A stretch of DNA of 39,582 nt from Nemertoderma westbladi (taxonomy: Eukaryota > Animalia > Xenacoelomorpha). The stretch lies in NCBI GenBank assembly GCA_032718475.1, contig JAUCBJ010001217.1, positions 1 to 39,582 of the forward strand, in the 5' to 3' direction. The notes beneath the pieces were generated by a model. That model was not told where the DNA came from and searched no databases. It worked only from the letters and a program-made list of their open reading frames with translations. This document shows, in pieces, positions 232 to 32,266 of the stretch; the stretch's first letter is position 1; the number at the start of each line of letters is the position of its first letter. Both the position numbers and the translations under genes were made by a program.

Positions 232-3200
232 CATAGACAGTCATACATTCCCCATAGACAATCACACATTCCCCATAGACAATCACACATCCCCCATATA
301 CAATCACACATTCTCCTCATAGACAATCACACATTCCCCATAGACAATCACACATCCCCCGTAGACAATCACACATCCCCCATAGACAATCACACATCCC
401 CATAGACAATCACACATCCCCCATAGACAATCACACATCCCCATAGACAATCACACATCCCCATAGACAATCACACATTCCCCATAGACAATCACACATT
501 CCCCATAGACAATCACACATCCCCCGTAGACAATCACACATTCCCCATAGACAATCACACATCCCCCATAGACAATTACACACTCCCCACAGACAATCAC
601 ACATCCCCCATAGAGAATCACACATCCCCCATAGACAATCACACATCCCACATAGACAATCACACATTCCACATAGACAATCACACATTCCACATAGACA
701 ATCACACATTCCCCATAGACAATCACACATCCCCCATAGACAATCACACATTCCCATAGACAATCACACATCCCCCATAGACAATCACACATCCCCATAG
801 ACAATCACACATTCCCCATAGACAATCACACATTCCCCATAGACAATCACACATTCCCCATAGACAATCACACATCCCCCATAGACAATCACACATTCCC
901 CATAGACAATCACACATCCCCCATATACAATCACACATCCCATAGACAATCACACATCCCCCATAGACAATCACACATCCCCCATAGACAATCACACATT
1001 CCCCATAGACAATCACACATCCCCCATATACAATCACACATCCCCATAGACAATCACACATCCCCCATAGACAATCACACATTCCCCATAGACAATCACA
1101 CATCCCCCATATACAATCACACATCCCCATAGACAATCACACATCCCCAATAGACAATCACACATCCCCCATAGACAATCACACATTCCCATAGACAATC
1201 ACACATCCCCCTTAGACAATCACACATCCCCCATAGACAATCACACATCCCCCATAGACAATCACACATTCCCCATAGACAATCACACATCCCCCATATA
1301 CAATCACACATCCCCATAGACAATCACACATCCCCCATATACAATCACACATCCCCATAGACAATCACACATCCCCCATAGAGAATCACACATCCCCCAT
1401 AGACAATCACACATCCCCCATATACAATCACACATCCCCATAGACAATCACACATCCCCCATATACAATCACACATCCCCATAGACAATCACACATCCCC
1501 ATATACAATCACACATCCCCATAGACAATCACACATTCCCCATAGACAATCACACATCCCCCATAGACAATCACACATCCCCCATAGACAATCACACATT
1601 CCCCATAGACAATCACACATCCCCCATATACAATCACACATCCCCATAGACAATCACACATCCCCCATATACAATCACACATCCCCATAGACAATCACAC
1701 ATCCCCCATACACAATCACACATTCCCCATAGACAATCACACATCCCCCATATACAATCACACATCCCCCGTAGACAATCACACATTCCCCATAGACAAT
1801 TACACATCCCCCCTAGACAATTACACATTCCCCACAGACAATCACACATCCCACATAGAGAATCACACATCCCCCATAGACAATCACACATCCCATATAG
1901 ACAATCACACATTCCACATAGACAATCACACATTCCACATAGACAATCACACATTCCCCATAGACAATCACACATCCCCCATAGACAATCACACATTCCC
2001 ATAGACAATCACACATCCCCCATAGACAATCACACATTCCCCATAGACAATCACACATCCCCCATATACAATCACACATCCCCATAGACAATCACACATC
2101 CCCCATAGACAATCACACATTCCCCATAGACAATCACACATCCCCCATATACAATCACACATCCCCATAGACAATCACACATCCCCAATAGACAATCACA
2201 CATTCCCCATAGACAATCACACATTCCCCATAGACAATCACACATTCCCCATAGACAATCACACATCCCCCATAGACAATCACACATTCCCCATAGACAA
2301 TCACACATCCCCCATATACAATCACACATCCCCATAGACAATCACACATCCCCCATAGACAATCACACATTCCCCATAGACAATCACACATTCCCCATAG
2401 ACAATCACACATCCCCAATAGACAATCACACATTCCCCATAGACAATCACACATTCCCCATAGACAATCACACATTCCCCATAGACAATCACACATCCCC
2501 CATAGACAATCACACATTCCCCATAGACAATCACACATCCCCCATATACAATCACACATCCCCATAGACAATCACACATCCCCCATAGACAATCACACAT
2601 TCCCCATAGACAATCACACATCCCCCATAGACAATTACACATTCCCCACAGACAATCACACATCCCCCATAGAGAATCACACATCCCCCATAGACAATCA
2701 CACATCCCACATAGACAATCACACATTCCACATAGACAATCACACATTCCACATAGACAATCACACATTCCCCATAGACAATCACACATCCCCCATAGAC
2801 AATCACACATTCCCATAGACAATCACACATCCCCCTTAGACAATCACACATCCCCCATAGACAATCACACATCCCCCATAGACAATCACACATTCCCCAT
2901 AGACAATCACACATCCCCCATATACAATCACACATCCCCATAGACAATCACACATCCCCCATAGAGAATCACACATCCCCCATAGACAATCACACATCCC
3001 CCATATACAATCACACATCCCCATAGACAATCACACATCCCCCATATACAATCACACATCCCCATAGACAATCACACATCCCCCATAGACAATCACACAT
3101 TCCCCATAGACAATCACACATTCCCCATAGACAATCACACATTCCCCATAGACAATCACACATTCCCCATAGACAATCACACATCCCCCATATACAATCA

Positions 3201-5470
3201 CACATCCCCATAGACAATCACACATCCCCCATAGACAATCACACATCCCCCATATACAATCACACATCCCCCATAGACAATCACACATTCCCCATAGACA
3301 ATCACACATCCCCCATATACAATCACACATCCCCATAGACAATCACACATTCCCCATAGACAATCACACATCCCCCATAGACAATCACACATCCCCCATA
3401 GACAATCACACATTCCCCATAGACAATCACACATCCCCCATATACAATCACACATCCCCATAGACAATCACACATCCCCATAGACAATCACACATCCCCC
3501 ATAGACAATCACACATTCCCCATAGACAATCACACATCCCCCATATACAATCACACATCCCCATAGACAATCACACATCCCCATAGACAATCACACATCC
3601 CCCATAGACAATGACACATCCCCCATAGACAATCACACATTCCCCATAGACAATCACACATCCCCCATATACAATCACACATCCCCATAGACAATCACAC
3701 ATCCCCATAGACAATCACACATCCCCCGTAGACAATCACACATTCCCCATAGACAATCACACATCCCCCATAGACAATTACACATTCCCCACAGACAATC
3801 ACACATCCCCCATAGAGAATCACACATCCCCCATAGACAATCACACATCCCACATAGACAATCACACATTCCACATAGACAATCACACATTCCACATAGA
3901 CAATCACACATTCCCCATAGACAATCACACATCCCCCATAGACAATCACACATTCCCATAGACAATCACACATCCCCCATAGACAATCACACATCCCCCA
4001 TAGACAATCACACATCCCCCATAGACAATCACACATTCCCCATAGACAATCACACATCCCCCATATACAATCACACATCCCCATAGACAATCACACATCC
4101 CCCATATACAAACACACATCCCCATAGACAATCACACATCCCCCATAGAGAATCACACATCCCCCATAGACAATCACACATCCCCCATATACAATTACAC
4201 ATCCCCATAGACAATCACACATCCCCCATATACAATCACACATCCCCATAGACAATCACACATCCCCCATATACAATCACACATCCCCATAGACAATCAC
4301 ACATCCCCCATATACAATCACACATCCCCATAGACAATCACACATGCCCCATATACAATCACACATCCCCCATATACAATCACACATCCCCCATATACAA
4401 TCACACATCCCCATAGACAATCACACATGCCCCATAGACAATCACACATGCCCATAGACAATCACACATGCCCCATATACAATCACACATCCCCCATATA
4501 CAATCACACATCCCCCATATACAATCACACATCCCCATAGACAATCACACATCCCCTATAGACAATCACACATCCCCCGTAGACAATCACACATGCCCCA
4601 TAGACAATCACACATGCCCATAGACAATCACACATGCCCATAGACAATCACACATGCCCCATATACAATCACACATCCCCCATATACAATCACACATCCC
4701 CCATATACAATCACACATCCCCCATATACAATCACACATCCCCCATATACAATCACACATCCCCATAGACAATCACACATCCCCCATAGACAATCACACA
4801 TCCCCCGTAGACAATCACACATCCCCCATAGACAATCACACATCCCCCATAGACAATCACACATGCCTCATAGACAATCACACATGCCCATAGACAATCA
4901 CACATGCCCCATATACAATCACACATCCCCCATATACAATCACACATCCCCCATATACAATCACACATCCCCATAGACAATCACACATCCCCCGTAGACA
5001 ATCACACATCCCCATAGACAATCACACATTCCCCATAGACAATCACACATTCCCCATAGACAATCACACATCCCCATAGACAATCACACATCCCCCATAT
5101 ACAATCACATATCCCCATAGACAATCACACATCCCCATAGACAATCACACATCCCCCATAGACAATCACACATCCCCCATAGACAATCACACATCCCCCA
5201 TAGACAATCACACATCCCCATAGACAATCACACATCCCCCATAGACAATCACACATCCCCCATAGACAATCACACATGCCCCATATACAATCACACATCC
5301 CCCATATACAATCACACATCCCCCATATACAATCACACATCCCCATAGACAATCACACATCCCCCATAGACAATCACACATTCCCCATATACAATCACAC
5401 ATCCCCCATATACAATCACACATCCCCATAGACAATCACACATGCCCCATAGACAATCACACATGCCCCA
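232..5470. repeat. Tandem satellite, 20-21 bp unit (CATAGACAATCACACATCCCC), ~250 copies
   Basis: Uninterrupted tandem array with recurrent variants (TTCCCC/TCCCCC, TATAC/TAGAC, GAGAATC, TCCACAT, late ATGCCC). The GMCDCLW/GCVIVYG ORFs are translations of the repeat. Confidence 0.98.
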
Positions 5471-6758
5471 GGTTGCCATCCAGGTTGGTTATTTCATTTC
5501 TGATAGTCAGATTTGAAGATTTTTCTGATAGTCAGGCCCAACTGTTATTATTGTAAATTACCCAAATGTATACCTAGATAAGTATTTTTGTTGTACAGTT
5601 GTCCGTACGGCAGTACAAAGTACTTGCTAGGCCTTTACCATTTTGTTATACCAGAATACCTAACTCTCTAAAAGTCTACAAAGTAAAGTAAAGTAGTATA
5701 CAAAGTAGTATAGGTCGACAACCAAACTACATGCATACCTATTGTACATTTTTTTGTTTAAAGGCTCTATACAGAGTAATATAATTATAATAAATGTGAT
5801 CTACAAACCCATACAGTTAAATACAACTCCATGACCCTTATGCCTGCGTCATACATACAGTAGTGAGGCATGCATTTGCATATGTGCACAAGTTTTTTAA
5901 TCCATTCCATGTGAAATGTTATCGATCAAATTTGAAATGATGTTCATTATGTTACAAGAGAAAGTGATATAAGTACCTATTAAATAAATAAAACCTAAAG
6001 ATTATGTATTATGATTAACCATGATATCACTTCACCCCCACCCCGGGGGAATTACGTGAATTGTGTTAGTTTGTTAATTGATTTACTTATCACCAAAGAT
6101 ATAATCTAAATCCGTTGTACAATGATTTATTGCGTACTATTTGAATAAGCCTGTGTGACTAAATAAATCTACATTGACTTTGAGCCGTCACCACTCGTCA
6201 GGTAAACAAAGTCTATTCAATTGATATTAGAGAGATTATTGTTTTATACAATTTAATTAATATCAAAGATATTATGTATTTCAAGTAATTTCATAAATGA
6301 TAAATTTACATATATAATTATTATTAAATTTGGCAACTAAAAAATATTGCTTTTAAATTTAATCATAATTAATAACTAACTGACTAAAGTAACATTTGTT
6401 TAAGGTATTGCAATTGAAATGATTAGGCCTAATGTAGACAGTAACTGCACTCGTTCTTGGGGACTTCGCGCAACACGAGACTCAGTTAACATGGAAAACT
6501 GAAATCCTTGAAGTGAAAACTTATTTGTATTTACAATACACCGCCATAGGACTGACAGAGGAACTGACTTAGTCTGTTATAGGAAGGGATCTAGGGGTCT
6601 TTACCTCGAATGATAAGTTTATTTTACCGAAAATAATTTATCTTTTATTGGCGCAATTGTAGGACTAATCCAATCACATGCGTACTTTTTAACCGGGTAG
6701 TGTACAAATTTATGAATCGCGTAATTTTTCTTGAAATTAATATCTCATATCTATCCAA

Positions 6759-6801
6759 ACCACGTACGCGTTTCGACCTTACTGGGTCTCATCAGCGTGG
6801 T
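6759..6801 (-). ncRNA. Minimal type I hammerhead ribozyme
   Basis: The - strand reads ACCACG-CTGATGA-GACC-CAGTAA-GGTC-GAAA-CGCGTA-CGTGGT. It has the core CUGAUGA and GAAA, stem II GACC/GGTC, stem I ACCACG/CGTGGT, a palindromic minimal stem III (ACGCGT) and a GUA cleavage triplet. Confidence 0.85.
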
Positions 6802-6860
6802 GTCGGATTCGAACCTGGGACCTCGAAGTGGAAGCCGAGACTACAACCACTAGGCCACAG
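6802..6860 (-). promoter_or_regulatory. tRNA-derived SINE head / Pol III internal promoter
   Basis: The - strand reads CTGTGGCCTAGTGGTTGTAGTCTCGGCTTCCACTTCGAGGTCCCAGGTTCGAATCCGAC. A box TGGCCTAGTGG and B box GGTTCGAATCC lie at tRNA spacing, with a CTTCCA loop reminiscent of tRNA-Gly(TCC). There is no acceptor stem. Confidence 0.75.
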
Positions 6861-7109
6861 GTTCTTGAGATATGGAGTATTAATTTCAAAGCCAGCTGCC
6901 ATTTTATTAGCCCCTGTTTTTTTTATTATTGATAGTAACAATGTGTTGGCAAGCTGTATTTTTCGAGGTATTTGTTATTATACATTTATTATAGGAAGGG
7001 ATCTAGTGATAAAAGATAATTTTCGGTAAAATAAACTTATCATTCGAGGTTAAGACCCCTAAATCCCTTCCTATAATAAATTAAACTACCGGTACCAACC
7101 CACTATATA

Positions 7110-7740
7110 ACTTATTCTGCGTCCGAATTTGATTGTTCTATTTTGCAGTTACTATGACAATCGCTGAAAACAGATGTTTTTATACAAAAATTACTCATTT
7201 GGATATAGACTTCGCGATAAAATTTTACGAAACTGGGAATGTGTTATCTGGACCACTAGTTGAAACTTTTAGTGATACTCAAATTATTCCAGAAATATAT
7301 AGTTACCTTGGTAACTGTATATTAATAAAGTCTATATCATTCCAGTCTATATTCATAACTCTATTTGTAGAAAAACCGCAATATATATAAACTTGGAGTT
7401 TCTTAACTCGACTATAAGGGCCATAGCCGAGCAGATTGAGGTAAATTAAAAAATCCTGATACCATGGCAACCAGGCTAAACAGACGTAAAAATTTATAAA
7501 ATGATAATTTGAAGCACAAGTTGATAGTATTATGACTTGGGACCAACACCTACCCCCACTCTATCACTTATTCTGCATACGAATTACATTGTACTATTTT
7601 TCAGTTTCCAAGACAACCACTGCAAACTGATGTTTTGCTGAAAAGTACATCTTTAATTTTGGACATCAACTACTCAATGAAACTTCCTGTGTAAAACCGA
7701 GCAGTTCTAGAAAACTCCAGTTGCCATGGTGATGGGAGTT
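7110..7740. repeat. Diverged direct duplication (~456 bp period) with GTTGCCATGG/CCATGGCAAC-like motifs; probable old DNA-transposon remnant
   Basis: ACTTATTCTGCGTCCGAATTTGATTGTTCTATTTTGCAGTT at ~7110 aligns by eye with ACTTATTCTGCATACGAATTACATTGTACTATTTTTCAGTT at ~7566, and the similarity continues >100 bp. Confidence 0.55.
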
Positions 7741-17635: not shown

Positions 17636-17676
17636 CGAACGTTTCGATTTAATCAATAAATCATCATCAGCGTAGG
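17636..17676 (-). ncRNA. Hammerhead-like motif in the Penelope pseudo-LTR (second copy at ~18994-19034, +, has a mutated core)
   Basis: The - strand reads CTGATGA-T-GATTTA-TTGAT-TAAATC-GAAACGTTC: core boxes, a 6-bp stem II and palindromic AACGTT. Stem I pairing is weak. The + copy reads GTGATGA and has a stem II mismatch. Confidence 0.55.
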
Positions 17677-18612
17677 AATGACTCATTCATTCTATTCCGT
17701 GACCGAAAGCATGCTACAGATTTTCTGAACTACCTTAACTCTAAACATTACGGCATTGAGTTTACCATCGAACATGAACTACGCCACTCTCTAAATTTCC
17801 TTGACGTCCTAATCAAGTTTAATGAAACAGATAACTCATTCCAAACATCTATTTACCACAAACCAACCTTTACTGGCCTATACACTTCCTATGGCAGTTT
17901 TATCCCGAATAAATTTAAAGTTTCCCTTATTGCAACGCTAGTTTACCGCTTGCTCATGATTTGCTCCACCTGGTGCCAATTTCAAACAGAAATATCGGTC
18001 CTACATAAGCATCTTACACTTAATTGATACCCTATGACTATGTTGTCATGGGTAACGGACAAAGTTATCGTGAAATTCACACATGCACCTAATGTTACCC
18101 CCGACACTGTTCCAAAAAAGTCAGTAATTTTAGTTCTACCGTACTTAGGGACGTATTCAACCATCCTACAGAAACGTTTACGCATCCTGTGCAAAGCTTA
18201 CCCTCAGTGTAACTTTAGGATCATATTCCGGCCCGCAACCCGGCTTGGGGTTTTTTTCCCATTCAAGGATAAACTTCCATTATCTCTCAGATCCCTTACC
18301 TTTTATAAATATAAGTGTAGTAGCTGCGATGCTACTTATATTGGCGAATCAAAACGCCATTTCAAGGTAAGAGTATGTGAACATATTGGTATATCTCCCC
18401 GAACAGGAAGACCCACATCCGCTCCCAGACACTCAGCAATACATGATCACTCCCTAGAGTTTGATCATAAGTTGTCCTATACCGATTTCACGGCTATAAG
18501 TAGGGCCAATACAAATTACGATCTTCTCATTAAAGAAAGTCTGTATATCAAGCATGAGAAACCTACTCTTAATATCCAAGGGACGTCCTTTCCTTTACAC
18601 CTGTTCCAGTAA
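17677..18612 (+). pseudogene. Penelope-like RT (C-terminal part) + GIY-YIG endonuclease, one in-frame stop
   Basis: A single frame reads NDSFILF..FLNYLNSKH..IEFTIEHE..LNFLDVLI..IYHKPTFTGLY, then TGA at 18025-18027 (N*YP), then LPYLG and YKYKCSSCDATYIGESKRHFKVRVCEH...LLIKESLYIKHEKPTLN. Confidence 0.92.
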
Positions 18613-19364
18613 ATTATCTTTTCGCAACCCATCCCCATCCCTGCCCCCCCCCCCCCCCCTCCCCCCGACCGAGCACTTATGTACCTACCTACACTATACA
18701 TTAATTCTAAATATTGTTTTTTTCACTATCTTACGTGCACCTACAATACGTTTTGTAACCCGTTTTGTAACGTTTAGGTAACCCCAATAATTCTGTATCT
18801 ATATGATTTTACGTTTACCCATATACATACCTGTAATCAATTCTGCTATAATACTTACTGCCTACCGGTATCTGTTGCATACTCCTAATAACTTTAATTT
18901 TACATGATTCTGAATTCTGATATTGTTGTATTTAAATCTATTGCAGTACTGTAGTATAAATATGTTAATTTGTTCATTTTTACTGTCTGTTAGCCTACGG
19001 TGATGATGATTTATTGATTACATCGAAACGTTCGAATTTAAATACTTTATAACTATGGCATTTTTTTCATTCGCTATTATCATAATATTCATATTAAGAC
19101 TATAACTATGGCATTTTTTTCATTCGCTATTATCATAATATTCATATTAAGACTGAGATACCCCACTGGGACTTCAATCACTTCTATAAGCAATAATACT
19201 AAGAAGTGCTGAAGTAATGAACAATGAAGCTATTAGCAGGGGCGTAGGCTGGTAGACAGGGGGGTAGATACTGGTTTCTAGGCCCGAATGATGGCCATTA
19301 ACAACTCTGTAATACAGTAGGCCTAACTGGGCAAAGTCTACTGAAGTCTACAAAAATAATTAAT

Positions 19365-19525
19365 TTTGTTCTAGAACAACAATTATTTGTTCTAGAACAA
19401 CAATTATTTGTTCTAGAACAACAATTATTTGTTCTAGAACAACAATTATTTGTTCTAGAACAACAATTATTTGTTCTAGAACAACAATTATTTGTTCTAG
19501 AACAACAATTATTTGTTCTAGAACA
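19365..19525. repeat. Perfect 21-bp tandem repeat TTTGTTCTAGAACAACAATTA (7 full + 1 partial)
   Basis: Identical units, each containing the palindrome TTGTTCTAGAACAA, with no spacers. Confidence 0.97.
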
Positions 19526-20302
19526 GGCACATAAGAGTTGTGGAATTCCAGCATAATGTGGTTAAATATTATTATTATTATGAACACAAAGAAGAAAAGT
19601 TTTTTTTCATTATTTGACATGGCCAATGATTGCAAGTGAGCCATCAGATTTTTTACAAAGGAACTACTGATGACCACATAGTTATTCTTGGCGGACTTAT
19701 AGAACGCCCTTTTGCTGTTACAAGTTCTTGCCACTTCGGAGATTTGACTGTTCGCATTATTCTTTAATTATATGTCTTTCCCATTCATTCCAAACCTCGA
19801 ATTGCTTCCTACATTACAGTAAACCGTAATTAATTATACGATAATCTCATACGGAATGGAGTCGAACCGCCCAGAATTCTAGCTGATTAGCATACCATCT
19901 ATCTGCACACAACGCTGTCACACATCAACCAATTTCATGCGCTTTTAATGCACATATTGCTTTCAATTTCAACATGGATAAAGAATAAAAAAAAATTGAT
20001 TAAAATACGCTGAAGAACAGTAATCACTGAACTTTAATTTCCTTTGAAATATGAAGATGGATGTAAACTACACGAAGATTTCAGCATAATTCTAAATTAG
20101 AAATACTAATAATGAAAATACTAACTAATACTACTAAGAATGATGGATAATGATAAAAAGTACTGATTATGTTGCTATTATGTTTGAATACTTATTTATA
20201 TCATATGACTGGAAACAGTCATGCGGTGGCTACTACCTGCTATTTGCATCAGTTTTCGCCTGGAGAGGATTCAATTTAATTAACCCCCCCCCCCCCCCCC
20301 CC

Positions 20303-20569: not shown

Positions 20570-23500
20570 TCAATATATATATTCATCATATTCTAAAGGA
20601 TATAGCAGTTTCAATGGCCTTTTTATAATCCTTTTTGAAGGGAGAGTTAGTTTGACAGATCGTATCAGCCCGTCATGACTCTGGATAAGTTGAGTTACTT
20701 TACCTAACTTCCACGATCCCCTTGGTAGGTTTTTCTCGTTTATTATTACAATGGATCCTATTTTTACTTCAGTATCTACAGCATGATTCTGTTTAATGTG
20801 TCTTTGATATCGTTCTCTTAAGGCTGGTAAGATATTCATCATTGAATATTGTCCAGCATTGATTTAAATATATCATTCCTTTCTTCCAATACTCTAGTAG
20901 GTCTATGGCTTTGGATTTCTTTGTTCCCGGTGTGTAATCTTTATCCTTCTCATTTTCAATTTCGATATAAGGAATCCCAGGTTTAGTATTGATAGTTAGA
21001 AAATCATTGGGAGTTAGGACGTATCTATCTTCCAGATCCGCACCAACGTAAGTTAAGGGTCGTGTATTGACCACAGCTTCTACCTCTGTCATAACAGTAT
21101 ACAATTGTAGATAGTTAAGACGCAATTTTCCTAGAGTTTTTCGCAGTGTACGTTTTATTATACCAACCATTCTCTCATAGAATCCACCCATCCATGGTGA
21201 TAGTTCTGGTATATATTTAATGTTTATTCCTTTACTGGAAATGTATGATAATACATCTTCATCATTTGTGACCTTCTTCCATAAGTTATTCATGACAGTG
21301 TCTGTGAGTTTGAACTGACCAGCATTGTCACAAATTATATTAGTAGGAGTTCCTCTCCTAGAGACAAATTGTCGTACACACATTAAGAATTCTTCAGATG
21401 ATTGATTAGCAGCTAGTTCGAGATGAATTGATCTCATTACTAAACAAGTGAAAAGACATACCCATGTTTTCACATTTTCCTTTGAAGGAAGTTATATGTA
21501 TAATGGTCCTAGGTAATCTAATCCAATGTGTTGGAAAGCAATAGCTTCAGTAGTTCTTAGTAAGGGAAAAGGAGGCATAATTGGTAATTTGTAAAGTCCT
21601 CCTTCCCATTTTCGGCAGGTCTTGCATATGAGCAGAACTGACCGCACTGCTCTTCTTCCCTGTGGTATCCAGTACTCTTTGCGCAGGGTTGATAATGTGT
21701 GGTTAATCCACGCATGTAGTCTACTTACATGAATGTGTTCTATTATTAGTGTAGTTAATGGAGAGATGGAATTTAGATGGAATTTTAGAGATAGTTGATG
21801 GAATTTGCAATAATCATCATTACTGATGTTTTCCAATCTTCCATAGCATCTAATTAGTCCATCGTTGTCTATCTTTAATCCAAGTTGATTAATAAGGTTG
21901 TTTCTTTTTCCATTGATGATATCATGTTTTATGTCTTTGAAGTGGTTCGATTGTATGTATTTCTCCCAAATTAATTTCGCATTGTTGATTTCTGTAGTCG
22001 TTAGGCATCCATTCAATTTCGTCTTTCCACGACAGTTTATAATAAATCTCTGAATCCATGCAGAAATACGTAGGATTCTGATCCACTTTGAATATTTATT
22101 TATGTCTAGTCCAAATGGTGTAGTCTTCATTTCATAAGATTTTTTGGTTATAATTGGAAGAGAAGCTTCGAATAGTATTTTGGAGGACATGCAACCCTGT
22201 ATTGCATCAATTGTTTTTTTTGTTATTTCTTCAACTCCCCAATTGGGCCATAATGATATATCACTTATGATCCATTTTGGTCCATTCCACCATAATGTGC
22301 TATTGTAGAGCTGTTTGGTTGTATATTGGCACCTAGTTGCAATATCAGCAGGATTATCTTGCGTATTCACATATCTAAAGTTGATGTTACTTGTATTTCT
22401 TATTTCTTTCAACCTATTTTCAATAAACACAGTCATTCTTTTATCACTTTTGAGCCAGGCTAAAACACATTGTGAATCGCTAAACAGTGTCTTTGTTTCC
22501 ATTTTCAGCTTTAGTTGTTCTTCAGCGAATTTAATACATCGGATGCCAATTACCATTGCCATTAGTTCTAAGCGAGGAATACTTGGCTTTTTTCGTTGAT
22601 TATCCTTCAAACTCTGTTTTGATATTGGGGCTAATCTATTTTTTGCAAATAATAACATTGATTTATATCCAGATTCAAGTGATATCCGTAAATATATTGC
22701 TGCTGCGTATGCTGTTTCCGAAGCATCGCAAAAACACATTAAATCAAGTTCATAATCCCCCAAGTTGCTCTGTATCTCTCCTTCAAATATATGTCGTGGG
22801 ATTTGGCATTCACTAATTTTCAATAGTTCATTGGCAATACTTGGCCACCTATTGATTATATTGTCGTTGAGTTTCATATTCCAATCTAGTTTTTCTCCCT
22901 TTTGTCTATCTTTCCACACTTCTTGGTATAATACCTTTGCTTGCAATGTAATAGGAATGAAATATCCTAACAGATCAAATATCTTTCCTAGGTTCTGCAA
23001 TATGTCACGAATATTTCTTACCTTAGTTTTAATGTTTGATTCTGCAATATGTATTTTATCGGCTTCAATATTCCATCCAATTCCAAGTACTTTGGTTACA
23101 CGTGATTTCATTAGATCAGCAAAATACATTTTATTAAGTAATTCATTAGAATTTGATGACCATTCACGTACATTCATAGAGGCTCCTTTAAAAATCTCTT
23201 TAGACTCAATATATAATTGTTTACCTTCATCTACATTATTCACTGAAGCTATTAAATTATCCACATATAAGTTATCCTGAATAACTTGGGCTACAGGAGT
23301 ATTGGTATTCTCTAAATGGTGTGCGATAACAGCACCAAGGAGATACTGGCACGAAATGATTCCAAATGGTATTTGACAAAATCGCATTGTGACAATATTG
23401 TTTTTCAATGGTTGCTTTATATCATTTGGGTCTTTATACCAGAAGAAACGAGTTACATCTTTATCTGTTTCTTGAATTCCTACTTGTAGATAAGCCTTTT

Positions 23501-24575
23501 CAATATCTGATATAATAGCTATAGATCTAAGACGAAATCGAATTAGCACCCCTGTCAAGTCTCTCATCAATGATGGTCCACGATACAAACACTCATTTAG
23601 GCATTTGCAATCTTTGTTTTTCTTTGCGCTAGCATTATATACTATACGTACCTTTGTTGTTGTTTTAGAGAGTTTAATTACAGGATGATGAGGAATATAA
23701 TGTTTGATTGGTTTATGTTTGTCATTCTCATCCTCATCACTTACTGTTTCGATTATACCATTATCCAGTTGATTGTTTATTATTGCGGAATACTTATCAT
23801 GTAAATCATTGTTCTCGATTAATCTTTGATGTAAAGATTTAAATCTATTGAAGGCTAAGTCACGATTTTCATTTGGATATTCATTATTGGGTTTCCATGG
23901 CTAACTAACGAAATATCTGTTATTTTCATATTTAACATTTTCTTTAAAATTTATAATCACTTGATCATCATCATCATTCATAGTTGGGTCTTCTATTCCA
24001 ATTATTTCCATCTTCCAGTAACTTTCGCTGTTGTTTATTACATTGGGTTCATATTGTTGATCCATATTGTCAAAAATCAACATAGATGTCTCATTAAATG
24101 ACTTATCTTCATTATCAGTATATCTCCCACTGATAACCCAACCAAATGTGGACTTTATCAAGCTTGGGCCTTCAGGCAGATTTATTTTCTCACCTGAAAT
24201 GAAATCTCCATAATAGTCTAATCCAATGAGGAAATTGATGTTTGTAATTTCATTTTCACCTGGAATTGTGTCCGCTAACGGTAAATCTTTCCATATTTCT
24301 TCAGATTTACCAAGATCAATTGACGATCTTTCAATTGGCCCAGTTATAATATTGACGACATGAACTGTTATTTGTTGGGAATTTCTGTTCATATCATATA
24401 GATTGATATCTGCTAATTTAAATGGTATCCTGATTGGTTCCTTTCTACCAAATGTGTTGGCAACAATTTCGCCTGGATCTCTTTCTACTAAAAATTCAAT
24501 TCTTTTGAAAATGAATGAGTAACATAAGTCCGCTTGCTTCCTGTGTCAAAGAAAACTCGTGTTGTAATTGGTTTC
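20570..24575 (-). pseudogene. BEL/Pao pol: aspartic protease, RT, RNase H, integrase, C-terminal DUF5641-type domain; several stops/frameshifts
   Basis: RVFFDTGSKRT (~24530-24560), SDIEKAYLQV, NLYVDNL, FCDASETAYAA, HIGLDYLGPL, WVCLFTCLVMRSIHLEL, SPWMGGFYERMVG and PRGSWKLGKV, split across ORFs 23901-24392, 21492-23588, 20793-21473 and 20570-20842. Confidence 0.93.
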
Positions 24576-24577
24576 AT

Positions 24578-26129
24578 TTATGTATGTCCAGGTTTCTGAA
24601 CATCTATTAAGGCAGTTTGCATTATGACTGACTCGTTAATTGACATTACTGGCAAACAATTGCTGGGATATCCATTGTTATCTTGCGATTCATTTAACTC
24701 CAATCTTTCTTTTGTTGCAACATTTTCAACTAATAAATTTGGACTACCCGCACTTTGATTTGAATGTTTTTTATAACATAAGCTTCTATGATGGTTTTTT
24801 GTTCTTCCACAGTGAGTACAAGTATAATTATATGTGCAATATCTAGTAGAATGACTCTCCTTTAAACAAATGTTACATTTGTTGCTCAACTGCAATTGTT
24901 TTTTTCGGGATGCGACATCCGGATATTTGTGGCATTTTTTTGTGGCGTTTTGGGTTTCCTGAGCAATACACACATGATCTATTTTCACCAAAGGATCGTT
25001 TACCAGCAACTGTTAATGCATGGCTAGTGGGTTTGTATTGCTTATAGTTATTTGGTCCTGACCAACCTTTATTGGTATTTTTATTATACGATGTTTCATG
25101 GTTATTCTTATTATGAATATCTCCGGAAGTCCTTTCAGTTAATGAATCGCGTCTTTCAGCTGCTTCTCGAGAAGCAATGTATCGCTTGAGGTTATTGCGT
25201 AAGGTACTTACTTCCCATTTTTCACTTGGATCTTTAAAGTACTCTAATTGTACTTTTACTTCCATTGGTAATTTCGAATAAATCATTGATACAAAAATTG
25301 GTTGAGAGATGTTTTCACCTAACCCTTCTAGGCTTCTAAGATTCTTTTCTATTGAATCATATGTGAGACGCAATCTACTTGTTTCATTCCTAGAAACAGC
25401 CAAATTCATTAATTCAGTATATATGGCATCAATTAAGGTTTGCGTTTCCCCAAATCTTTCTTTTAACAGTTCTACAGCTACATTATAATTTTCATTAGTC
25501 AATTGCAATCCTGAAATTTCCCTTTTGGCTTCACCGTCTAACTTTGTACGCAAGTAATTAAATTTCTCAACTGGTTTCAACTCATTTTTACTATCAATAG
25601 CTGCTTCAAATGAATCCCAAAATTCACCCCATTTTAATACATTTCCTGAAAAACGTTCTATATCCAATTTTGGCAAATTAACCTTTACTCTGCTTCCGGC
25701 ATAGTGAATTGCACTGATGCCCCCACCTTCATTAACTTGCACATTACTCATATTCATTGTTGCCTCTTCAAGGTTTGCTTGTAGGCCTATTTGTGCTTTG
25801 ACTTCATTTCGGTATTCATTGATACGTTGTATTCTCACAATTAGACGAGATGAAGAATTCATTATTTGATCATTAAATAGTGATACTGTACTAATTTCAT
25901 TATTCACAGCATCCCCATCATCGTCAGGCAATAAATTTAAAATTTGTTCATTAAGGGTATCTAAATCTTGACCATATAATTTAAGTTTACTTTTAGTTAT
26001 TTCAGCATCTTCTAAATTTATTTCATTTCCATCACTCATTAATTCATCAACTATTTTAAATAATTTCTTTATATTGGTCCTTGCAGCTTCTCTCTTCAAC
26101 CGCAATTTATTTGTCCCGGTTCCAGGCAT
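24578..26129 (-). pseudogene. BEL/Pao gag (DUF1759-type) with zinc knuckles, frameshifted
   Basis: VNLPKLDIERFSGNVLKWGEFWDSFEAAID...EKFNYLR...ENYNVAVELLKERFG. The knuckles CNICLKESHSTRYC and CTHCGRTKNHHRSLC are in a shifted frame. Confidence 0.9.
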
Positions 26130-27499
26130 TTCTGCAGGCCTGTTTGATTATTATTTAACAAATTTCAGCATTGACTTCAGGCATTACTAATGGCCTGTTA
26201 TTATTCTGTTTGATAATTATATTATTATTTAACATTGGTCTGTTGGTGTAGGACTATTAGGCATACACTCATTGTACAGTTGTAGTACTGGTATCCAACA
26301 TTATAAAGAGGATAATATATACAATATACATATATGGGCAGTCCAAGTTAATGCATCTTCGACTGCTTTAATTCAATCAAACAATGATGGCTGTTTTCCC
26401 AAGCACCGGTAGGCAGTAGGCCTATTATTACGAATGGTTAAGTATTAATTATGCACTCACCAAATCATCAAATTCTACCGGTCAGCCGATAGCTGTGGAC
26501 AATCTTTACGTCTGTATGGCATTCCAGGTCCTTATATCTGTTACTGTTTGTATGTGGCGTGGCTCGTTCGTTTTATATTCCAGGATTCGCCAAGTTTAAT
26601 TGATTCCGATTCATTATACTGATATAGGGAATACGTAGCGCATATAGCAGTATAGGTAGGCCTTAATTAAGTAGGCTGGGCTGTAGGCCTAGCTAATTTA
26701 TTGTTGATCCCTTTCATTAGAATTTCAGTACCGGTATCAGCGGAAGGTTATTCATTTAGTCTAAGCTGTTATACAATAATTGGGACTTAGGTCATATAAA
26801 TGTCACGACACCCCCCCCCCCCCCCCCCTCCTTTTCCGTATATAGTATGGTAATTACTTTAAAAAAAGTATTTTCAAGCTAAAGTTGATAAAATGCAATC
26901 AGCTCATTGCTATATACGCTGTACTGTATGGAGGAAGGTTAGGTGGATCTCTCGTATGAAATCATCCTACCACTATTGTAAATTATTCCAAGAAAAAACG
27001 TTACTGTAGGCTGAATGGTTGATGTTTAAGGATGGGAAGGCTATAACCAACCACCCAGTCACCTAAAGTAAAATATAAATCTAATATAAAGCTTCAACAT
27101 ATAAATAAAAATTTAATAGGACTAAAGTAAATAACAAATCAAATATGTACAAAATAGGCTTGGCCTACCCCATCCCACAAGCTATACAGTAGTCTGTAAT
27201 ATAGAACGCTAGGCAGACTTCAGGACTGCCAGGCAATCAGGTCACTGTCCAACTGTATAAAATACAAAATAATAATACGAAAACCAGTTCACACTTCACA
27301 GTGACGTATATCAGACAGTCAGAACCAGATATATATATATATTAAAATCCGGGATGTCCCCGGCGCTATAATATTGCCATAAATAAAATCATAAAAATCG
27401 ACGCACATAATGCTTAAAATAATAGAGTAAGGGCACATAAAATAATACTATTTCTATTCGGTTGCCACAAGTAGACAATATGTGGATTTCAAGCCAGTG

Positions 27500-28350: not shown

Positions 28351-31080
28351 CTACGTGTGGGGATTTAGAAATTCCTTTAATATCATTAATCTAGTGGATA
28401 TAGCGTAGTTTGTATTGTTCAAGAGTGATTGCGAGTACCAAGTGGTGAATTGATCCTTGGGGCTAATATCCGCCGTCTGGGCCATTTTTGCGGTTTGACT
28501 ACAATGTTTGGTTGAATATGGGTGGACAGCAATGGATAACAAATTCGGATTATTATATCTCCATGCTGTGAAATTATATGATGCAAATATGTCTACTGAG
28601 GGTCCCACACAATGGTCACACAATGTACTACCAAAGAGAAAGGCTAGTTTGGGATTCTTTGTATTAAATAATCTGTATATTAATTGAAATTGATTCAATC
28701 TAAGCTGTAATTCCACGTCCATTCCAAATAGCTGATATATCACTTTGTTTGAAATTCTGTTGTTCATTCCGATAATATGACGCATCGCTTTACGCAACTC
28801 CTTAGCTGTTTTGTCAATTTTTCCTGATGGTAGAGCAGCAGAGCCATATAGAATGCTCGATAGGCAAATTGTGTTCCAAACTAGTTTAGTTACATCCAGT
28901 GGGACTTCATTGATTGTTAGACCTCGGTGCGAGATCAGACCTACATTGCCCCAAATTTTTCCAATTACAAACTTTGATATTGTTTTGCCATCAGCTGGGA
29001 GGGGAATGCCCATATATTTGCAACTTTTTTTTGATTGCAGTGTTTTATCCTTGAGGGTAAGCATGTCATTGGTGTTCGTAGTGCCTTTGGTGTTAATGGA
29101 CAGGAAGTGACACTTTGACTCATTTAATTTGAGGTTGTGATCTCTGAGATACTGTGAACAAATTTCCAGTAAACTAGTGAGGTGTGACTTCATGTTCGCC
29201 AGGATTATAATGTCATCAGCGTAGTTTATGGCGCAGAAAGAAATATCTTTAATGTGGATACCAAGGTTTGACTTTTCGAGCTGTTCGAATAGGTCTGTCA
29301 GATAGAAATTGAACAGGAAAGGTGACAAGATACCACCCTGTCTCACTCCCTGTTGAATTGCAATTGGTTCACCTATAGTGTATCCCCCACAAGAGACATA
29401 TGCAGAAGATTGGTTGTAGTACGATTCTAAAGCGTTGATTATGTTTCCGTCTATATTGGTTTGTCTTAGTTTATGAAAGAGTTTGCTATGAGATATCATA
29501 TCAAAGGCACAGCTAAGATCCAAACTGAGTAGGTACATAGGAGATCCCTTCTTAGTAAATTTGTTGATGAGACTGGAAACAACGGCTTGATGGGCTATGT
29601 CTGATCCTATGTGTGGTTTGTATCCTAGTTGCAGGTGATTTGGAGATATAGATGTTATTTCTTTCAAGATGGATAGTTCCCAGAGCTTTCCTAATGTAAG
29701 TGTAACACTTATGTTCCTGAAGGATTGTTCTTGTGGAATAATACATTCTGTCTTATGGAGTTTGGGCACGGGTGCAATGGTCCCAAGAGAGAAAATCTTT
29801 GGGCATACACCACTGTTAGAAATTTCTGCAAAAAGTTCTGCAATGAAGGAGCATAGAGTCTCCGTCCGCCCATATATGAGACATTCAGCATTTATCCCAT
29901 ATAGATCACTAGTTTTGCCAGTGTTTAGTTTACTAATTAAATTGTAGATTTCAGAGGGATTTACTGTATGTTGTTTGGTTGGGTTGCATTGGCCAGATTG
30001 TTTGGTTGGGTTGCATTGACCAGTTTGCTGAGCTGCAGAATACTTTTCGTTTTCGGGTAAAGATAAGCTGGTTTTGATGGTACTAAATATTTTGCTAAGG
30101 TGGATATCAGAAACTGTATTTGTAACTCTTTTGGGCTTAATTTTCCTCCAGAAAGCGCTAGGATTGGTGCGGTTTGATGCCACAAGCGACTTCACATGAC
30201 TTTTATACTCAAACGATGGATTTTTATCTGATTGATTATATGTTCTATATTTGACGAAAGAGGAGGGAATATTTGATCTGCAGGCATTTCCAATAGTTTT
30301 TACCACGAGTTCTGCCTTACTATTGATGTCTTGGCTTGTATAATAAAGAAGATTCTGTTCTATTTCAGCACGGTAGGATTCTAATTGCTGTTTGGATGCT
30401 CTATTAAAATGAAAACGAATATTTTTGTTTTTTGTCTTTCTCACCATTGCATGGTGTTTATTTGGATGAGTATTTAATGTGATCTCTGAGAGCACGGGTA
30501 GGTGTCTTGAAACATTGTTTTTGGTACAGTTGAAAATTACTCCACCTGTGAGATAGTTGTACCATGATGTAGGTATGAAGGTATGATCGATGTGGCTTTT
30601 TTTGTGTCCATCTTTGCACTGCATGAGATAAGTAAATCTGTTTCCATTCGTTTTTTGAGTCATGTCCGCAGCGATGAAGTTGTATTCTGATATAATTTTC
30701 TCAAGGAAAATGTCTCCAAACTTCGATGATTTGACAGCTCCTCTGGGCTGTAACTGCTGATCTCCCTTTATGACCCCATTTATATCCCCCATAACAATTG
30801 GGGTTAGATTTTGGTTTAAACATTCATCAATGATCAGTCCTAGTTTCCCAACTTCTTTAAGATAATTAGATTCATCATCCTCTCTTCCACAGTTTGATGG
30901 CAAGTATACATTTAAAATTGCTATGTCTTCAGTAAACAAAGATCTGATGACAATGCCAGAAATTCGGTCAGAACCGGTTTTAAAACTTTTGCAATGCGGT
31001 ATTATGTCATTTCTTACATATATCGCTGTACCACCTTCGCCGCGAACTCTAGGTTTAGGCTTCAGCATTTCACTAGACAC
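28351..31080 (-). CDS. Non-LTR retrotransposon (LINE) ORF2: APE endonuclease (N-terminus missing) + reverse transcriptase, 909 aa uninterrupted
   Basis: EN motifs GGTAIYV, ILNVYLP, IVMGDIN, SHIDH and SRHLPV. RT motifs FRNISV, QLGYK, LDLSCAFDMISH, GVRQGGILSPFLFNFY, YADDIIIL and KYMGI. Confidence 0.92.
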   Translation of the reverse strand: MSSEMLKPKPRVRGEGGTAIYVRNDIIPHCKSFKTGSDRISGIVIRSLFTEDIAILNVYLPSNCGREDDESNYLKEVGKLGLIIDECLNQNLTPIVMGDINGVIKGDQQLQPRGAVKSSKFGDIFLEKIISEYNFIAADMTQKTNGNRFTYLMQCKDGHKKSHIDHTFIPTSWYNYLTGGVIFNCTKNNVSRHLPVLSEITLNTHPNKHHAMVRKTKNKNIRFHFNRASKQQLESYRAEIEQNLLYYTSQDINSKAELVVKTIGNACRSNIPSSFVKYRTYNQSDKNPSFEYKSHVKSLVASNRTNPSAFWRKIKPKRVTNTVSDIHLSKIFSTIKTSLSLPENEKYSAAQQTGQCNPTKQSGQCNPTKQHTVNPSEIYNLISKLNTGKTSDLYGINAECLIYGRTETLCSFIAELFAEISNSGVCPKIFSLGTIAPVPKLHKTECIIPQEQSFRNISVTLTLGKLWELSILKEITSISPNHLQLGYKPHIGSDIAHQAVVSSLINKFTKKGSPMYLLSLDLSCAFDMISHSKLFHKLRQTNIDGNIINALESYYNQSSAYVSCGGYTIGEPIAIQQGVRQGGILSPFLFNFYLTDLFEQLEKSNLGIHIKDISFCAINYADDIIILANMKSHLTSLLEICSQYLRDHNLKLNESKCHFLSINTKGTTNTNDMLTLKDKTLQSKKSCKYMGIPLPADGKTISKFVIGKIWGNVGLISHRGLTINEVPLDVTKLVWNTICLSSILYGSAALPSGKIDKTAKELRKAMRHIIGMNNRISNKVIYQLFGMDVELQLRLNQFQLIYRLFNTKNPKLAFLFGSTLCDHCVGPSVDIFASYNFTAWRYNNPNLLSIAVHPYSTKHCSQTAKMAQTADISPKDQFTTWYSQSLLNNTNYAISTRLMILKEFLNPHT

Positions 31081-31365
31081 TGTATATGTCGGACATAATA
31101 GGTTGAGGTAAGTTTCAACGACACGACTCTACCCGAACAGAACAAGACTGATAGACTGAAATTAGGTAAACTGATAAATATTTGTAGGCCTACCGGTCCC
31201 GGTATAGCAGTATTGTGCACCATCTTGATGACATTGCGGGTATGGAAGCATTTTTTATTAAGTTCTTGGTTGGGAATTTATTTATATCCTACATACAGAC
31301 ATATATATTCGGGATTACTGGGATACACTACAGTATACTGCATAGGTTTAATGAATGTAGGCCTA

Positions 31366-32266
31366 TTGCTCGTTGTTGCTCATTGTTGCTCGTTGTTGCT
31401 CATTGTTGCTCGTTGCTGCTCATTATTGCTCGTTGTTGCTCATTGTTGCTCATTGTTACTCGTTGTTGTACTTTATTATTGCTCGTTGTTGCTCATTGTT
31501 GCTCATTGTTACTCGTTGTTGCTCATTGTTGCTCGTTGTTGGTCATTGCTGCTCATTGTTAATCGTTGTTGTACTTCATTGTTGCTCGTTGTTGCTCATT
31601 GTTGCTCGTTATTGCTCGTTGTTGCTTATTGTTGCTCGTTGTTGTACTTTATTATTGCTAATTGTTGCTTATTATTGCTCGTGTTGCTCATTGTTGCTCG
31701 TTGTTGCTCGTTGTTGCTCATTGTTGCTCATTGTTACTCGTTGTTGTACTTTATTATTGCTCGTTGTTGCTCATTGTTGCTCGTTGTTGCTCATTGTTGC
31801 TCATTGTTGCTCGTTGTTGCTCATTGTTGCTCATTGTTGCTCGTTGTTGCTCATTGTTGCTCGTTGTTGGTCATTGCTGCTCATTGTTAATCGTTGTTGT
31901 ACTTTATTATTGCTCGTTGTTGCTCATTGTTGCTTGTTGTTGCTCATTGTTGCTCATTGTTGCTCGTTGTTGCTCGTTGTTGCTCATTGTTGCTCGTTGT
32001 TGCTCATTGTTGCTCATTGTTACTCGTTGTTGTATATTATTGCTCGTTGTTGCTCATTGTTGCTCATTATTGCTCGTTGTTGTTCATTGTTGCTCGTTGT
32101 TGGTCATTGTTGCTCGTTGTTGTACTTTATTATTGCTCGTTGTTGCTCATTCTTGCTCGTTATTGCTCATTGTTGCTCGTTGTTGCTCATTGTTGCTCGT
32201 TGTTGCTCGTTGTTGCTCATTTTTGCTCGTTGTTGCTCATTGTTGCTCGTTGTGCATTTTAGCACC
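31366..32266 (+). repeat. 10-bp satellite TTGCTC(A/G)TTG, ~0.9 kb
   Basis: Tandem 10-mers with recurring TTGTACTTTATTA and GGTCATTGCTG variants. The CCSLLLVVAH ORFs are translations of the repeat. Confidence 0.97.

Follow-up and report, generated by a model that had tools for sequence, protein, structure and literature searches.

A 412-nt repeat family in Nemertoderma westbladi that joins RNA polymerase III promoter boxes to a hammerhead motif, with an insertion layout pointing to Penelope-type machinery

We analyzed a 39,582-nucleotide (nt) stretch of the Nemertoderma westbladi genome (contig JAUCBJ010001217.1, taken whole and called the window below) that contains, on the minus strand from 6860 to 6753, an RNA polymerase III (Pol III) A box and B box, both perfect, followed directly and with zero spacer by a hammerhead ribozyme motif. 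The element that carries this fusion recurs in thousands of contigs from public sequencing runs. We read it, at a probability of about 0.6, as a young copy of an abundant, non-coding 412-nt retroelement family with a tRNA-derived Pol III-type promoter and a canonical hammerhead that is predicted to cut only as a dimer, a family whose copies were likely inserted by the reverse transcriptase and endonuclease of a Penelope-like element (PLE). The evidence comes from the motif and its predicted folds, from the abundance, joints and ends of the family's copies, and from the arrangement of the copy in the window, and it is weighed below against four rival explanations. Coordinates of the features are collected in Table 1.

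A hammerhead motif fused to Pol III promoter boxes

Every core nucleotide of the hammerhead is present at 6753..6811 on the minus strand. Its core pattern was matched a single time within the 39.6 kb, where 0.00 matches were expected, and a looser scan of both strands of the window that demanded helix II pairing returned the same site only. Helices I and II are paired both in the alignment to Rfam and in the minimum free energy (MFE) structure, and the G10.1-C11.1 closing pair is present in helix II. The coordinates and pattern scans thus bear out an initial annotation of this locus, which had described an intact core, intact stems I and II, and a stem III formed by the palindrome ACGCGT on the minus strand. 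That annotation had also likened the motif to the minimal hammerheads of PLEs, and here the helix lengths point elsewhere. In the account of Cervera and de la Pena (PMC4209133), the PLE minimal hammerhead ribozyme (min-HHR) combines a 7-8-bp helix II with a 4-5-bp helix I and lacks loop 3, whereas the canonical metazoan type I hammerhead is described in the same source with a helix I of 6 bp, a helix II of 4 bp, and a helix III of 1-2 bp with a small palindromic loop. Judged from its letters, the motif in the window is of the canonical metazoan type I and not a min-HHR.

Comparison with covariance models, which the initial annotation had suggested as a check, gave a divided answer. The stretch from 6811 to 6744 aligns end to end with the whole Hammerhead_HH9 model (RF02275; E 8.4e-6 in a 401-nt search), and it agrees with that model in the letters of loop II and in having an internal loop within helix I, although the model's helix III hairpin is replaced here by C-GC-G. 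This best Rfam score, however, was 30.4 bits, below the cut-off of 52, and no Rfam family matched the hammerhead stretch at the gathering level. In the HH9 alignment, distal helix I pairs the last 4 nt of the B box (AUCC), so that the ribozyme overlaps the B box. The gapless fusion of tRNA-like segment and hammerhead reported in the initial annotation is therefore confirmed, and the tail of the B box even lies inside distal helix I.

We compared the predicted folding of one and of two copies of the motif with ViennaRNA. The 69-nt monomer reached an MFE of -19.4 kcal/mol with helices I and II retained, although it has no workable helix III: 2 bp are unable to close the 2-nt loop, and a partner copy is for this reason predicted to be necessary for cleavage. 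Two copies folded together reached -47.1 kcal/mol, compared with -38.8 kcal/mol for two separate monomers (2 x -19.4), and this cofold shows an intermolecular 6-bp ACGCGU helix, with helix I formed between both strands. The cofold corresponds to the double-hammerhead structure of Forster et al. (cited in PMC4209133), and the same source describes dimer-acting canonical metazoan hammerheads with a palindromic helix III arranged as it is here. On these folding models, the hammerhead is predicted to cut only upon the pairing of two copies.

A pair of A and B boxes at tRNA-like spacing is found once in the window, against 0.00 expected from 100 shuffles, and the CTTCCAC loop between them resembles a UCC anticodon loop (Gly-type). 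The initial annotation had called this segment a tRNA-derived head; the perfect boxes agree with that description, but a tRNA fold or model match does not accompany them. ARAGORN found no tRNA in the head, and the Rfam tRNA model returned nothing on it at E<=10, even in a 91-nt search. As far as its sequence tells, the head is no longer a foldable tRNA, and the boxes and the anticodon-loop-like CTTCCAC are all that remain. The tRNA-hammerhead module is bracketed by a 22-nt inverted repeat, which is the closing stem of a 159-nt fold of -61.8 kcal/mol. Elsewhere in the window, another site resembling a B box (19858-19868) is not surrounded by tRNA-like sequence.

Table 1. Features of the element and of the candidate partner remnant, in window coordinates
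Feature	Position	Strand	Remarks
Main copy	6577..7006	-	18 nt of the preceding unit plus a full 412-nt unit (6988 down to 6577)
Inverted 5'-truncated copy	7009..7081	+	Last ~72 nt (3' end) of the unit, joined to 5 nt of the following one; head-to-head with the main copy
tRNA-derived head	6796..6860	-	A box, anticodon-loop-like CTTCCAC, B box
A box, TGGCCTAGTGG	6857-6847	-	
B box, GGTTCGAATCC	6815-6805	-	
Type I hammerhead motif	6753..6811	-	Pattern scans, Rfam alignment, folding
Distal helix I	AUCC 6808-6805 with GGAU 6756-6753	-	4 bp past an internal loop; from the HH9 alignment
Helix I	5' strand 6801-6796 with 3' strand 6764-6759	-	6 bp
Core CUGAUGA	6795-6789	-	
Helix II	6788-6785 with 6778-6775	-	4 bp, first pair G-C; 6-nt loop 6784-6779
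Core GAAA	6774-6771	-	
Palindrome ACGCGU	6771-6766	-	
Helix III, C-GC-G	6770-6767	-	2 bp, 2-nt GC loop
Cleavage triplet GUA	6767-6765 (U 6766, A 6765)	-	Predicted cut between 6765 and 6764
Inverted repeat bracketing the tRNA-hammerhead module, upstream arm	6868..6889	-	22 nt, 86% complementary
Inverted repeat bracketing the tRNA-hammerhead module, downstream arm	6731..6752	-	
A8 run	6917..6924	-	Length varies among copies; indels at 6918
TTTT run, possible Pol III terminator	6630..6633	-	Sole such run in the unit's sense strand; the copy's 3' end follows 53 nt later
Penelope-like coding remnant, 5'-truncated	17653-18612	+	End of the reverse transcriptase plus C-terminal endonuclease-like part; protein comparison

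An abundant family of 412-nt units

We assessed the family by aligning contigs of public sequencing runs (X1-X5 and X7) to the window locus. At a likeness of at least 80%, 4246 contigs of X1 and 1599 of X3 lie on 6577-7006; at a likeness of at least 85%, the counts are 3730 in X1, 2016 in X2, 1460 in X3, and 80 in X5. Summed word depth in X1-X3 is 5-8e5 within the element and 28-31 in the single-copy stretch 7092-7100, a ratio that is not a copy number and that we read only as "thousands or more." The element belongs to a very abundant, non-coding 412-nt repeat family, represented by thousands of contigs in three runs of DNA. Several contigs from several runs bridge the tRNA-hammerhead junction at 6801/6802 by more than 31 nt on each side (6727-6841, 6778-6888, 6684-6846, 6742-6840, and 6700-6847), which makes the fusion a feature of the family and not of the window copy alone. 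The initial annotation had anticipated a repeat family that shares this junction and had named copy number as a way of checking it, and both the depth and the thousands of contigs support that expectation.

The length of the unit is given by an 18-nt direct repeat (6577-6594 and 6989-7006) with a spacing of 412. Contigs that extend beyond 7006 resume with the letters that follow 6594, one contig of X5 has a joint going back 412, and X2 contains a joint from 6987 to 6577, with 2 letters between, at a depth of 3635. In addition, a 441-nt contig of X4 spans exactly 6577-7006 with the majority letters of the family. Its length equals 411 + 30 and fits a closed 411-nt cycle in a graph of k = 31, where we infer both k and the cycle; such a contig is equally expected from tandem DNA and from circular or multimeric RNA, and the type of run X4 is only guessed to be RNA. 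Folded as a circle, the 412-nt unit reached -97.3 kcal/mol (z = -3.7 relative to 100 dinucleotide shuffles).

Loose ends with unlike flanks (agreement 0.4-0.5) gather at three places, 6577, 7080/7081, and 6924/6925, all of which are sense-strand 3' ends in AT-rich sequence. Among the copy loose ends listed there is no fixed class of 5' ends. Copies end away from the cut site of the ribozyme, and the window copy runs through it.

These joints and ends bear on the possibility that the family is a satellite-like repeat that has spread chiefly at the DNA level, through processes such as unequal exchange or the copying of segments, and that self-cleaving transcripts are incidental to that spread. 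Tandem joints do exist, and satellites that carry hammerheads are known from the newt (satellite 2) and the cave cricket (pDo500), both cited in PMC7229834. However, many boundaries fall at a small number of fixed 3' positions and have flanks that differ, the family is spread over thousands of separate contigs, and the window copy consists of 1.04 units and an inverted stub within a mosaic of transposons, all of which indicates dispersed insertions and not arrays. We consider spread at the DNA level improbable as the main explanation.

At 7 positions (6637, 6672, 6713, 6753, 6827, 6917, and 6970), or ~1.6%, the window copy departs from the majority letter of the family, and this small divergence indicates that it is young. 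Among the X1 contigs, 1258 have a likeness of at least 99%, 1749 of 95-99%, 642 of 90-95%, and 81 a lower one. Minority letters at a frequency of at least 2% occur at ~6 of the 430 positions in X1-X3, with none within 6754-6826, and none is listed at the T4 run at 6630-6633. A diverged relative in X7 carries 2 other letters in 6742-6821, the stretch of the B box and hammerhead, compared with 13-14 in 6792-6887; the differences listed are confined to 6822-6856, in the central part of the tRNA-like head. Going by the sequence, this pattern may mean either that the B box and hammerhead are constrained or else that the head has been exchanged. A hairpin fold that we had considered for the tRNA-like head was dropped, as the changes in X7 and in the family majority gave it no support and several of them break its pairs.

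Insertion layout and candidate machinery

Only 2 nt separate the main copy from the inverted, 5'-truncated copy that stands head-to-head with it. By BLAST, element positions 1-72 correspond to 7076-7009 at 91.7%, and positions 408-430 correspond to 7081-7059. Since this inverted stub carries the 3' region of the unit, both outer ends of the composite are 3' ends. Other copies contain comparable structures: at the opposite-strand joints 6661/6840 and 6694/6758, a 3' fragment in inverted orientation abuts a sense copy that is truncated at its 5' end. Further opposite-strand joints that involve 7009-7081 are ambiguous, because that stretch duplicates 6577-6648.

One way to account for the composite is as a miniature inverted-repeat transposable element (MITE), or another remnant of a DNA transposon, bounded by a 69-nt inverted repeat (6569-6637 and 7016-7084). 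The arms agree at 91%, and boundaries with unlike flanks do fall at 6577 and 7081 across the family. The inner junction at 7007-7018, however, has a depth of only 125-1169, compared with 5-8e5 for the unit, and is not family-wide; on this ground we rejected the MITE. A fixed unit between terminal inverted repeats would likewise not explain the tandem joints, the variable inverted joints, or the ends at 6924/6925, and a search of the outer ends found no target-site duplication. This origin is very improbable.

The layout is the one described for PLE insertions. According to Craig et al. (PMC8557442), PLE insertions are frequently 5'-truncated and form partial tandems, the pseudo-long terminal repeats (pLTRs), and they may carry an inverted 5'-truncated copy near the 5' end as well as optional short extensions at their ends. 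The partial tandem, the copy on the 5' side that is inverted and 5'-truncated, and the optional end extensions are described for pLTRs in PMC8557442, PMC4209133, and PMC11167929 and are seen here, and pLTRs also resemble our repeat in containing a hammerhead (PMC4209133). By this analogy, the insertion layout points to Penelope-type machinery. Differences remain: unlike PLE pLTRs, the unit here has no open reading frame (ORF), it has a tRNA-type promoter, its hammerhead is canonical with loop-loop features and not a min-HHR, and neither a target-site duplication nor a homologous autonomous PLE was found in the window.

PLEs are present in this genome, as shown by a coding remnant at 17653-18612 (Table 1), which is interrupted by an in-frame stop at 18025-18027. 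Over its last 194 amino acids (aa), it shares 37-43% identity with the C-terminal portions of proteins of 346-844 aa (E 3e-40 to 3e-27). Most of these homologues have a precomputed RVT_1 domain; of the two that we scanned, both contained RVT_1 and one gave a weak, sub-threshold match to GIY-YIG. A Pfam search of the PLE-like ORFs of the window itself matched no family. Downstream of the remnant lie two perfect tandem repeats, at 19048-19154 (53 nt x 2) and 19365-19525 (21 nt x 7.7); weak matches of the latter to microRNA models are at chance level.

Given this resemblance, the 412-nt unit might itself be the pLTR of a protein-coding PLE, with the window copy either solo or heavily 5'-truncated. 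PLE insertions are mostly 5'-truncated and leave behind stubs of hammerhead-bearing pLTRs (PMC8557442, PMC4209133). Moreover, a few contigs that continue beyond 7006 share the first 9-14 letters of the terminal module and then diverge from the window; such loose ends at 7006 number 8 contigs in X1 and 7 in X3, and other elements may share this tail. On the other hand, the joints with a period of 412 and the 441-nt contig that fits a cycle indicate that units abut without an intervening ORF, the flanks of the boundaries are unlike (agreement 0.4-0.5) and offer no common coding continuation, and the unit has no relation to the only PLE coding remnant that the window contains. We therefore regard a pLTR origin as unlikely.

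A further alternative is that the element is a classical tRNA-derived short interspersed nuclear element (SINE), mobilized by a long interspersed nuclear element (LINE), and that its hammerhead is carried along without serving any role. The perfect A and B boxes fit a SINE, as do the internal A8 run, with its class of copy ends at 6924/6925, and the presence of several LINE-type reverse transcriptases in the window. The initial annotation had inferred a SINE/retrozyme-type family. However, the copy's 5' end lies 146 nt upstream of the head, which matches no tRNA model, the unit is 412 nt long, and partial tandems occur in the family. Neither an A tail nor a simple repeat is present at the main 3' end (6577), no target-site duplication of at least 6 nt was found at 6577/7081, and no similarity was found between the tail and the LINEs of the window. 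The inverted stub offers an additional test. In L1 twin priming, the inverted part is expected to derive from an upstream region, unlike the stub here, which is a 3'-terminal region, as in the PLE layout. Mobilization as a classical SINE is, on balance, quite unlikely.

Under the reading that we prefer, a non-coding element inserted by PLE machinery, Pol III would be drawn to the internal A and B boxes, by analogy with the Sm-alpha element of Schistosoma (PMC6765202), and read-through of partial tandems or neighboring copies would yield RNAs with two hammerheads. Two ACGCGU segments, on one RNA or on two, would then pair as a 6-bp helix III, and the cut would fall after GUA. A transcript begun at the head would release a 5' piece of ~96-102 nt upon cleavage, in keeping with the ~100 nt predicted in the initial annotation, whereas cleavage of tandem copies would give a unit-length RNA with the promoter near its 3' end, which a tRNA ligase could close into a circle of 411-412 nt, as in animal retrozymes (PMC7229834).

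The DNA template, however, would be uncut or re-closed RNA. Because the copies do not end at the cut site, cut linear monomers were not the copied template, and because the window copy begins 146 nt upstream of the head and crosses the cut site, the template must have been a read-through, multimeric, or re-closed RNA. Together with the position of the T4 run, these facts mean that reverse transcription must have begun internally. It would have started at internal AT-rich sites near ...CCTATAA and passed the start of the unit, which would produce the 18-nt overlap, and the second-strand reaction typical of PLEs would produce the inverted stub. Initiation of reverse transcription that is internal and linked to AT-rich sequence has been described in vitro for one PLE (PMC11167929). 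A bolder version of this scheme is possible, although we hold it as tentative: the family may represent a SINE of a third kind, a retrozyme with its own Pol III promoter that is trimmed and circularized by its dimeric hammerhead and copied by PLE machinery rolling round the circle from an internal start.

Several observations weigh against the preferred reading. Some concern the ribozyme and its role. The unit is nearly uniform within the species, so that the hammerhead is not measurably better kept than the rest, and a repeated X5 contig (depth 401) is changed at core positions G5, A13, and U16.1, changes that mark a decayed subfamily. The monomer's helix III is not workable, the best Rfam score is below its cut-off, and neither tRNA search recognizes the head. 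As the copies do not end at the cut site, the DNA copies are explicable without cleavage, and in the one PLE studied in vitro ribozyme cleavage was dispensable (PMC11167929). Others concern transcription: the head stands 146 nt inside the copy, and a Pol III transcript that ended at the T4 run, 53 nt before the 3' end of the copy, would be unable to template it. The remainder concern the partner. BLAST found no similarity between the PLE remnant and the 412-nt unit, scans of the window found no hammerhead near the remnant, and a comparison that covered the window found no autonomous element with the same tail as the unit. The absence of a shared word of at least 6 nt flanking 6577 and 7081, and thus of a target-site duplication, counts weakly in the same direction.

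Comparison with known systems and related motifs

The closest known counterparts are the elements Sm-alpha and Sj-alpha of Schistosoma, in which a tRNA-derived Pol III-type promoter stands directly before a type I hammerhead and which occur in very high copy number, both dispersed and in tandem (PMC2770079, PMC6765202). The analogy with Sm-alpha drawn in the initial annotation proves apt, as the order of promoter and then hammerhead is identical (PMC6765202). After cleavage, the promoter of Sm-alpha is near the 3' end of the unit RNA (PMC2770079, PMC6765202), as is predicted for the unit here. The two differ in other respects. Our unit is 412 nt, compared with ~335 nt for the Sm-alpha-like W36.2_W001 (PMC8490949); its head is Gly-type (UCC-like) without a match to a tRNA model, whereas Sm-alpha copies are called by tRNAscan as tRNA-Gln-TTG (PMC2770079); and, unlike Sm-alpha, it matches no Rfam hammerhead family above the cut-off. 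This comparison is with published descriptions of Sm-alpha and not with its sequence, and the PLE-type insertion layout is documented for the family here.

The element also resembles the non-LTR (long terminal repeat) retrozymes of metazoans (Cervera and de la Pena, 2020), whose units span 150-450 bp, do not code for protein, contain a type I hammerhead, are low in GC, and occur in tandem; in some lineages their helix III is too weak for monomer cleavage (PMC7229834, PMC7761336). Their circle, like the one modeled above, is predicted to be stable and highly paired (PMC7229834, PMC7761336). Retrozymes are, however, described as promoterless (PMC7761336), whereas our unit has perfect A and B boxes, and unlike the retrozymes that form arrays, most copies of the family appear dispersed with fixed 3' ends. 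The mobilizing partner of retrozymes is given as unknown in a review (PMC7761336). A preprint proposes PLEs as the origin or partner of vertebrate retrozymes (10.64898/2026.07.22.740005, 2026), with no mention of tRNA or Pol III in the available part of its text. In literature listings and passages of the papers cited here, we found no description outside schistosomes of a tRNA-headed hammerhead element with a PLE insertion layout. The most fitting reading places the element within the Sm-alpha/retrozyme kind, a design that is itself already known.

While the design is not new, the family extends it past the sequences covered by the Rfam hammerhead models. A young and abundant family with Pol III boxes, an intact hammerhead, units that form tandems or cycles, and a Penelope-style layout would also make a convenient test system, in which Pol III drive, the action of the ribozyme as a dimer switch, and the use of circles as templates for reverse transcription could each be examined.

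We also searched other sequence collections for related motifs. In metagenomes, a hammerhead core combined with ACGCGUA was found at 61 loci representing 47 distinct motifs. In 11 of these, helix I contains an unbroken run of 5 or more pairs and helix II has 4 or more, and their stem sequences differ widely. These matches indicate that the ACGCGU-type hammerhead is a common sub-type in environmental DNA; no close relative of the window family is among the metagenome loci. The specific pattern had 0 matches in a prokaryote genome collection, where the more general pattern of a B box plus hammerhead gave 1 match, a chance occurrence in a bacterial coding region without stems, and viral contigs gave 0 pattern matches.

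A tRNA-like box upstream of the hammerhead was found at only one of the metagenome loci, L055. This locus (1-1804) is an unrelated, GC-rich tandem unit of ~1012 nt, present in 1.8 units, with a tRNA-like stretch whose near-consensus B box lies ~18 nt upstream of a canonical ACGCGU hammerhead; ARAGORN found no tRNA in it. Judging by the sequence, L055 is an independent case of the tRNA-box-plus-hammerhead module. If the tentative scheme of a self-circularizing, PLE-copied retrozyme were true, then the module, with L055 as a second instance, would have arisen repeatedly as a standard way of parasitizing PLEs. At further loci (L053/L054, L017, and L056), helix II and its loop are almost those of the window, with one loop letter fewer, and helix I is different; within this group, two hammerhead copies occur on one 3.4-kb contig. 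By their motifs, these loci may represent a related retrozyme or PLE lineage.

Within the window, the hammerhead element is embedded in a mosaic of repeats and transposons. It is adjoined by a second, unrelated high-copy repeat at 7099-7200 (summed depth ~2-3e5 in X1), a copy of which lies 456 nt onward at 7555-7636 (82%). A 21-bp minisatellite occupies 232-5470, with the consensus CATAGACAATCACACATCCCC in ~252 copies at 93% matches, and it makes the first 6 kb extremely strand-skewed (GC skew of roughly -0.65 to -0.8). On the minus strand, a BEL/Pao-type LTR retrotransposon at 20793-26147 contains DUF1759 (gag-like), Peptidase_A17, a weak RVT_1, and Integrase_H2C2, with its ORFs split by stops. 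The same strand carries a non-LTR reverse-transcriptase ORF of 925 aa at 28351-31128 (RVT_1, E 5e-32), which is followed at 31366-32253 by a 10-bp tandem repeat in ~87 copies.

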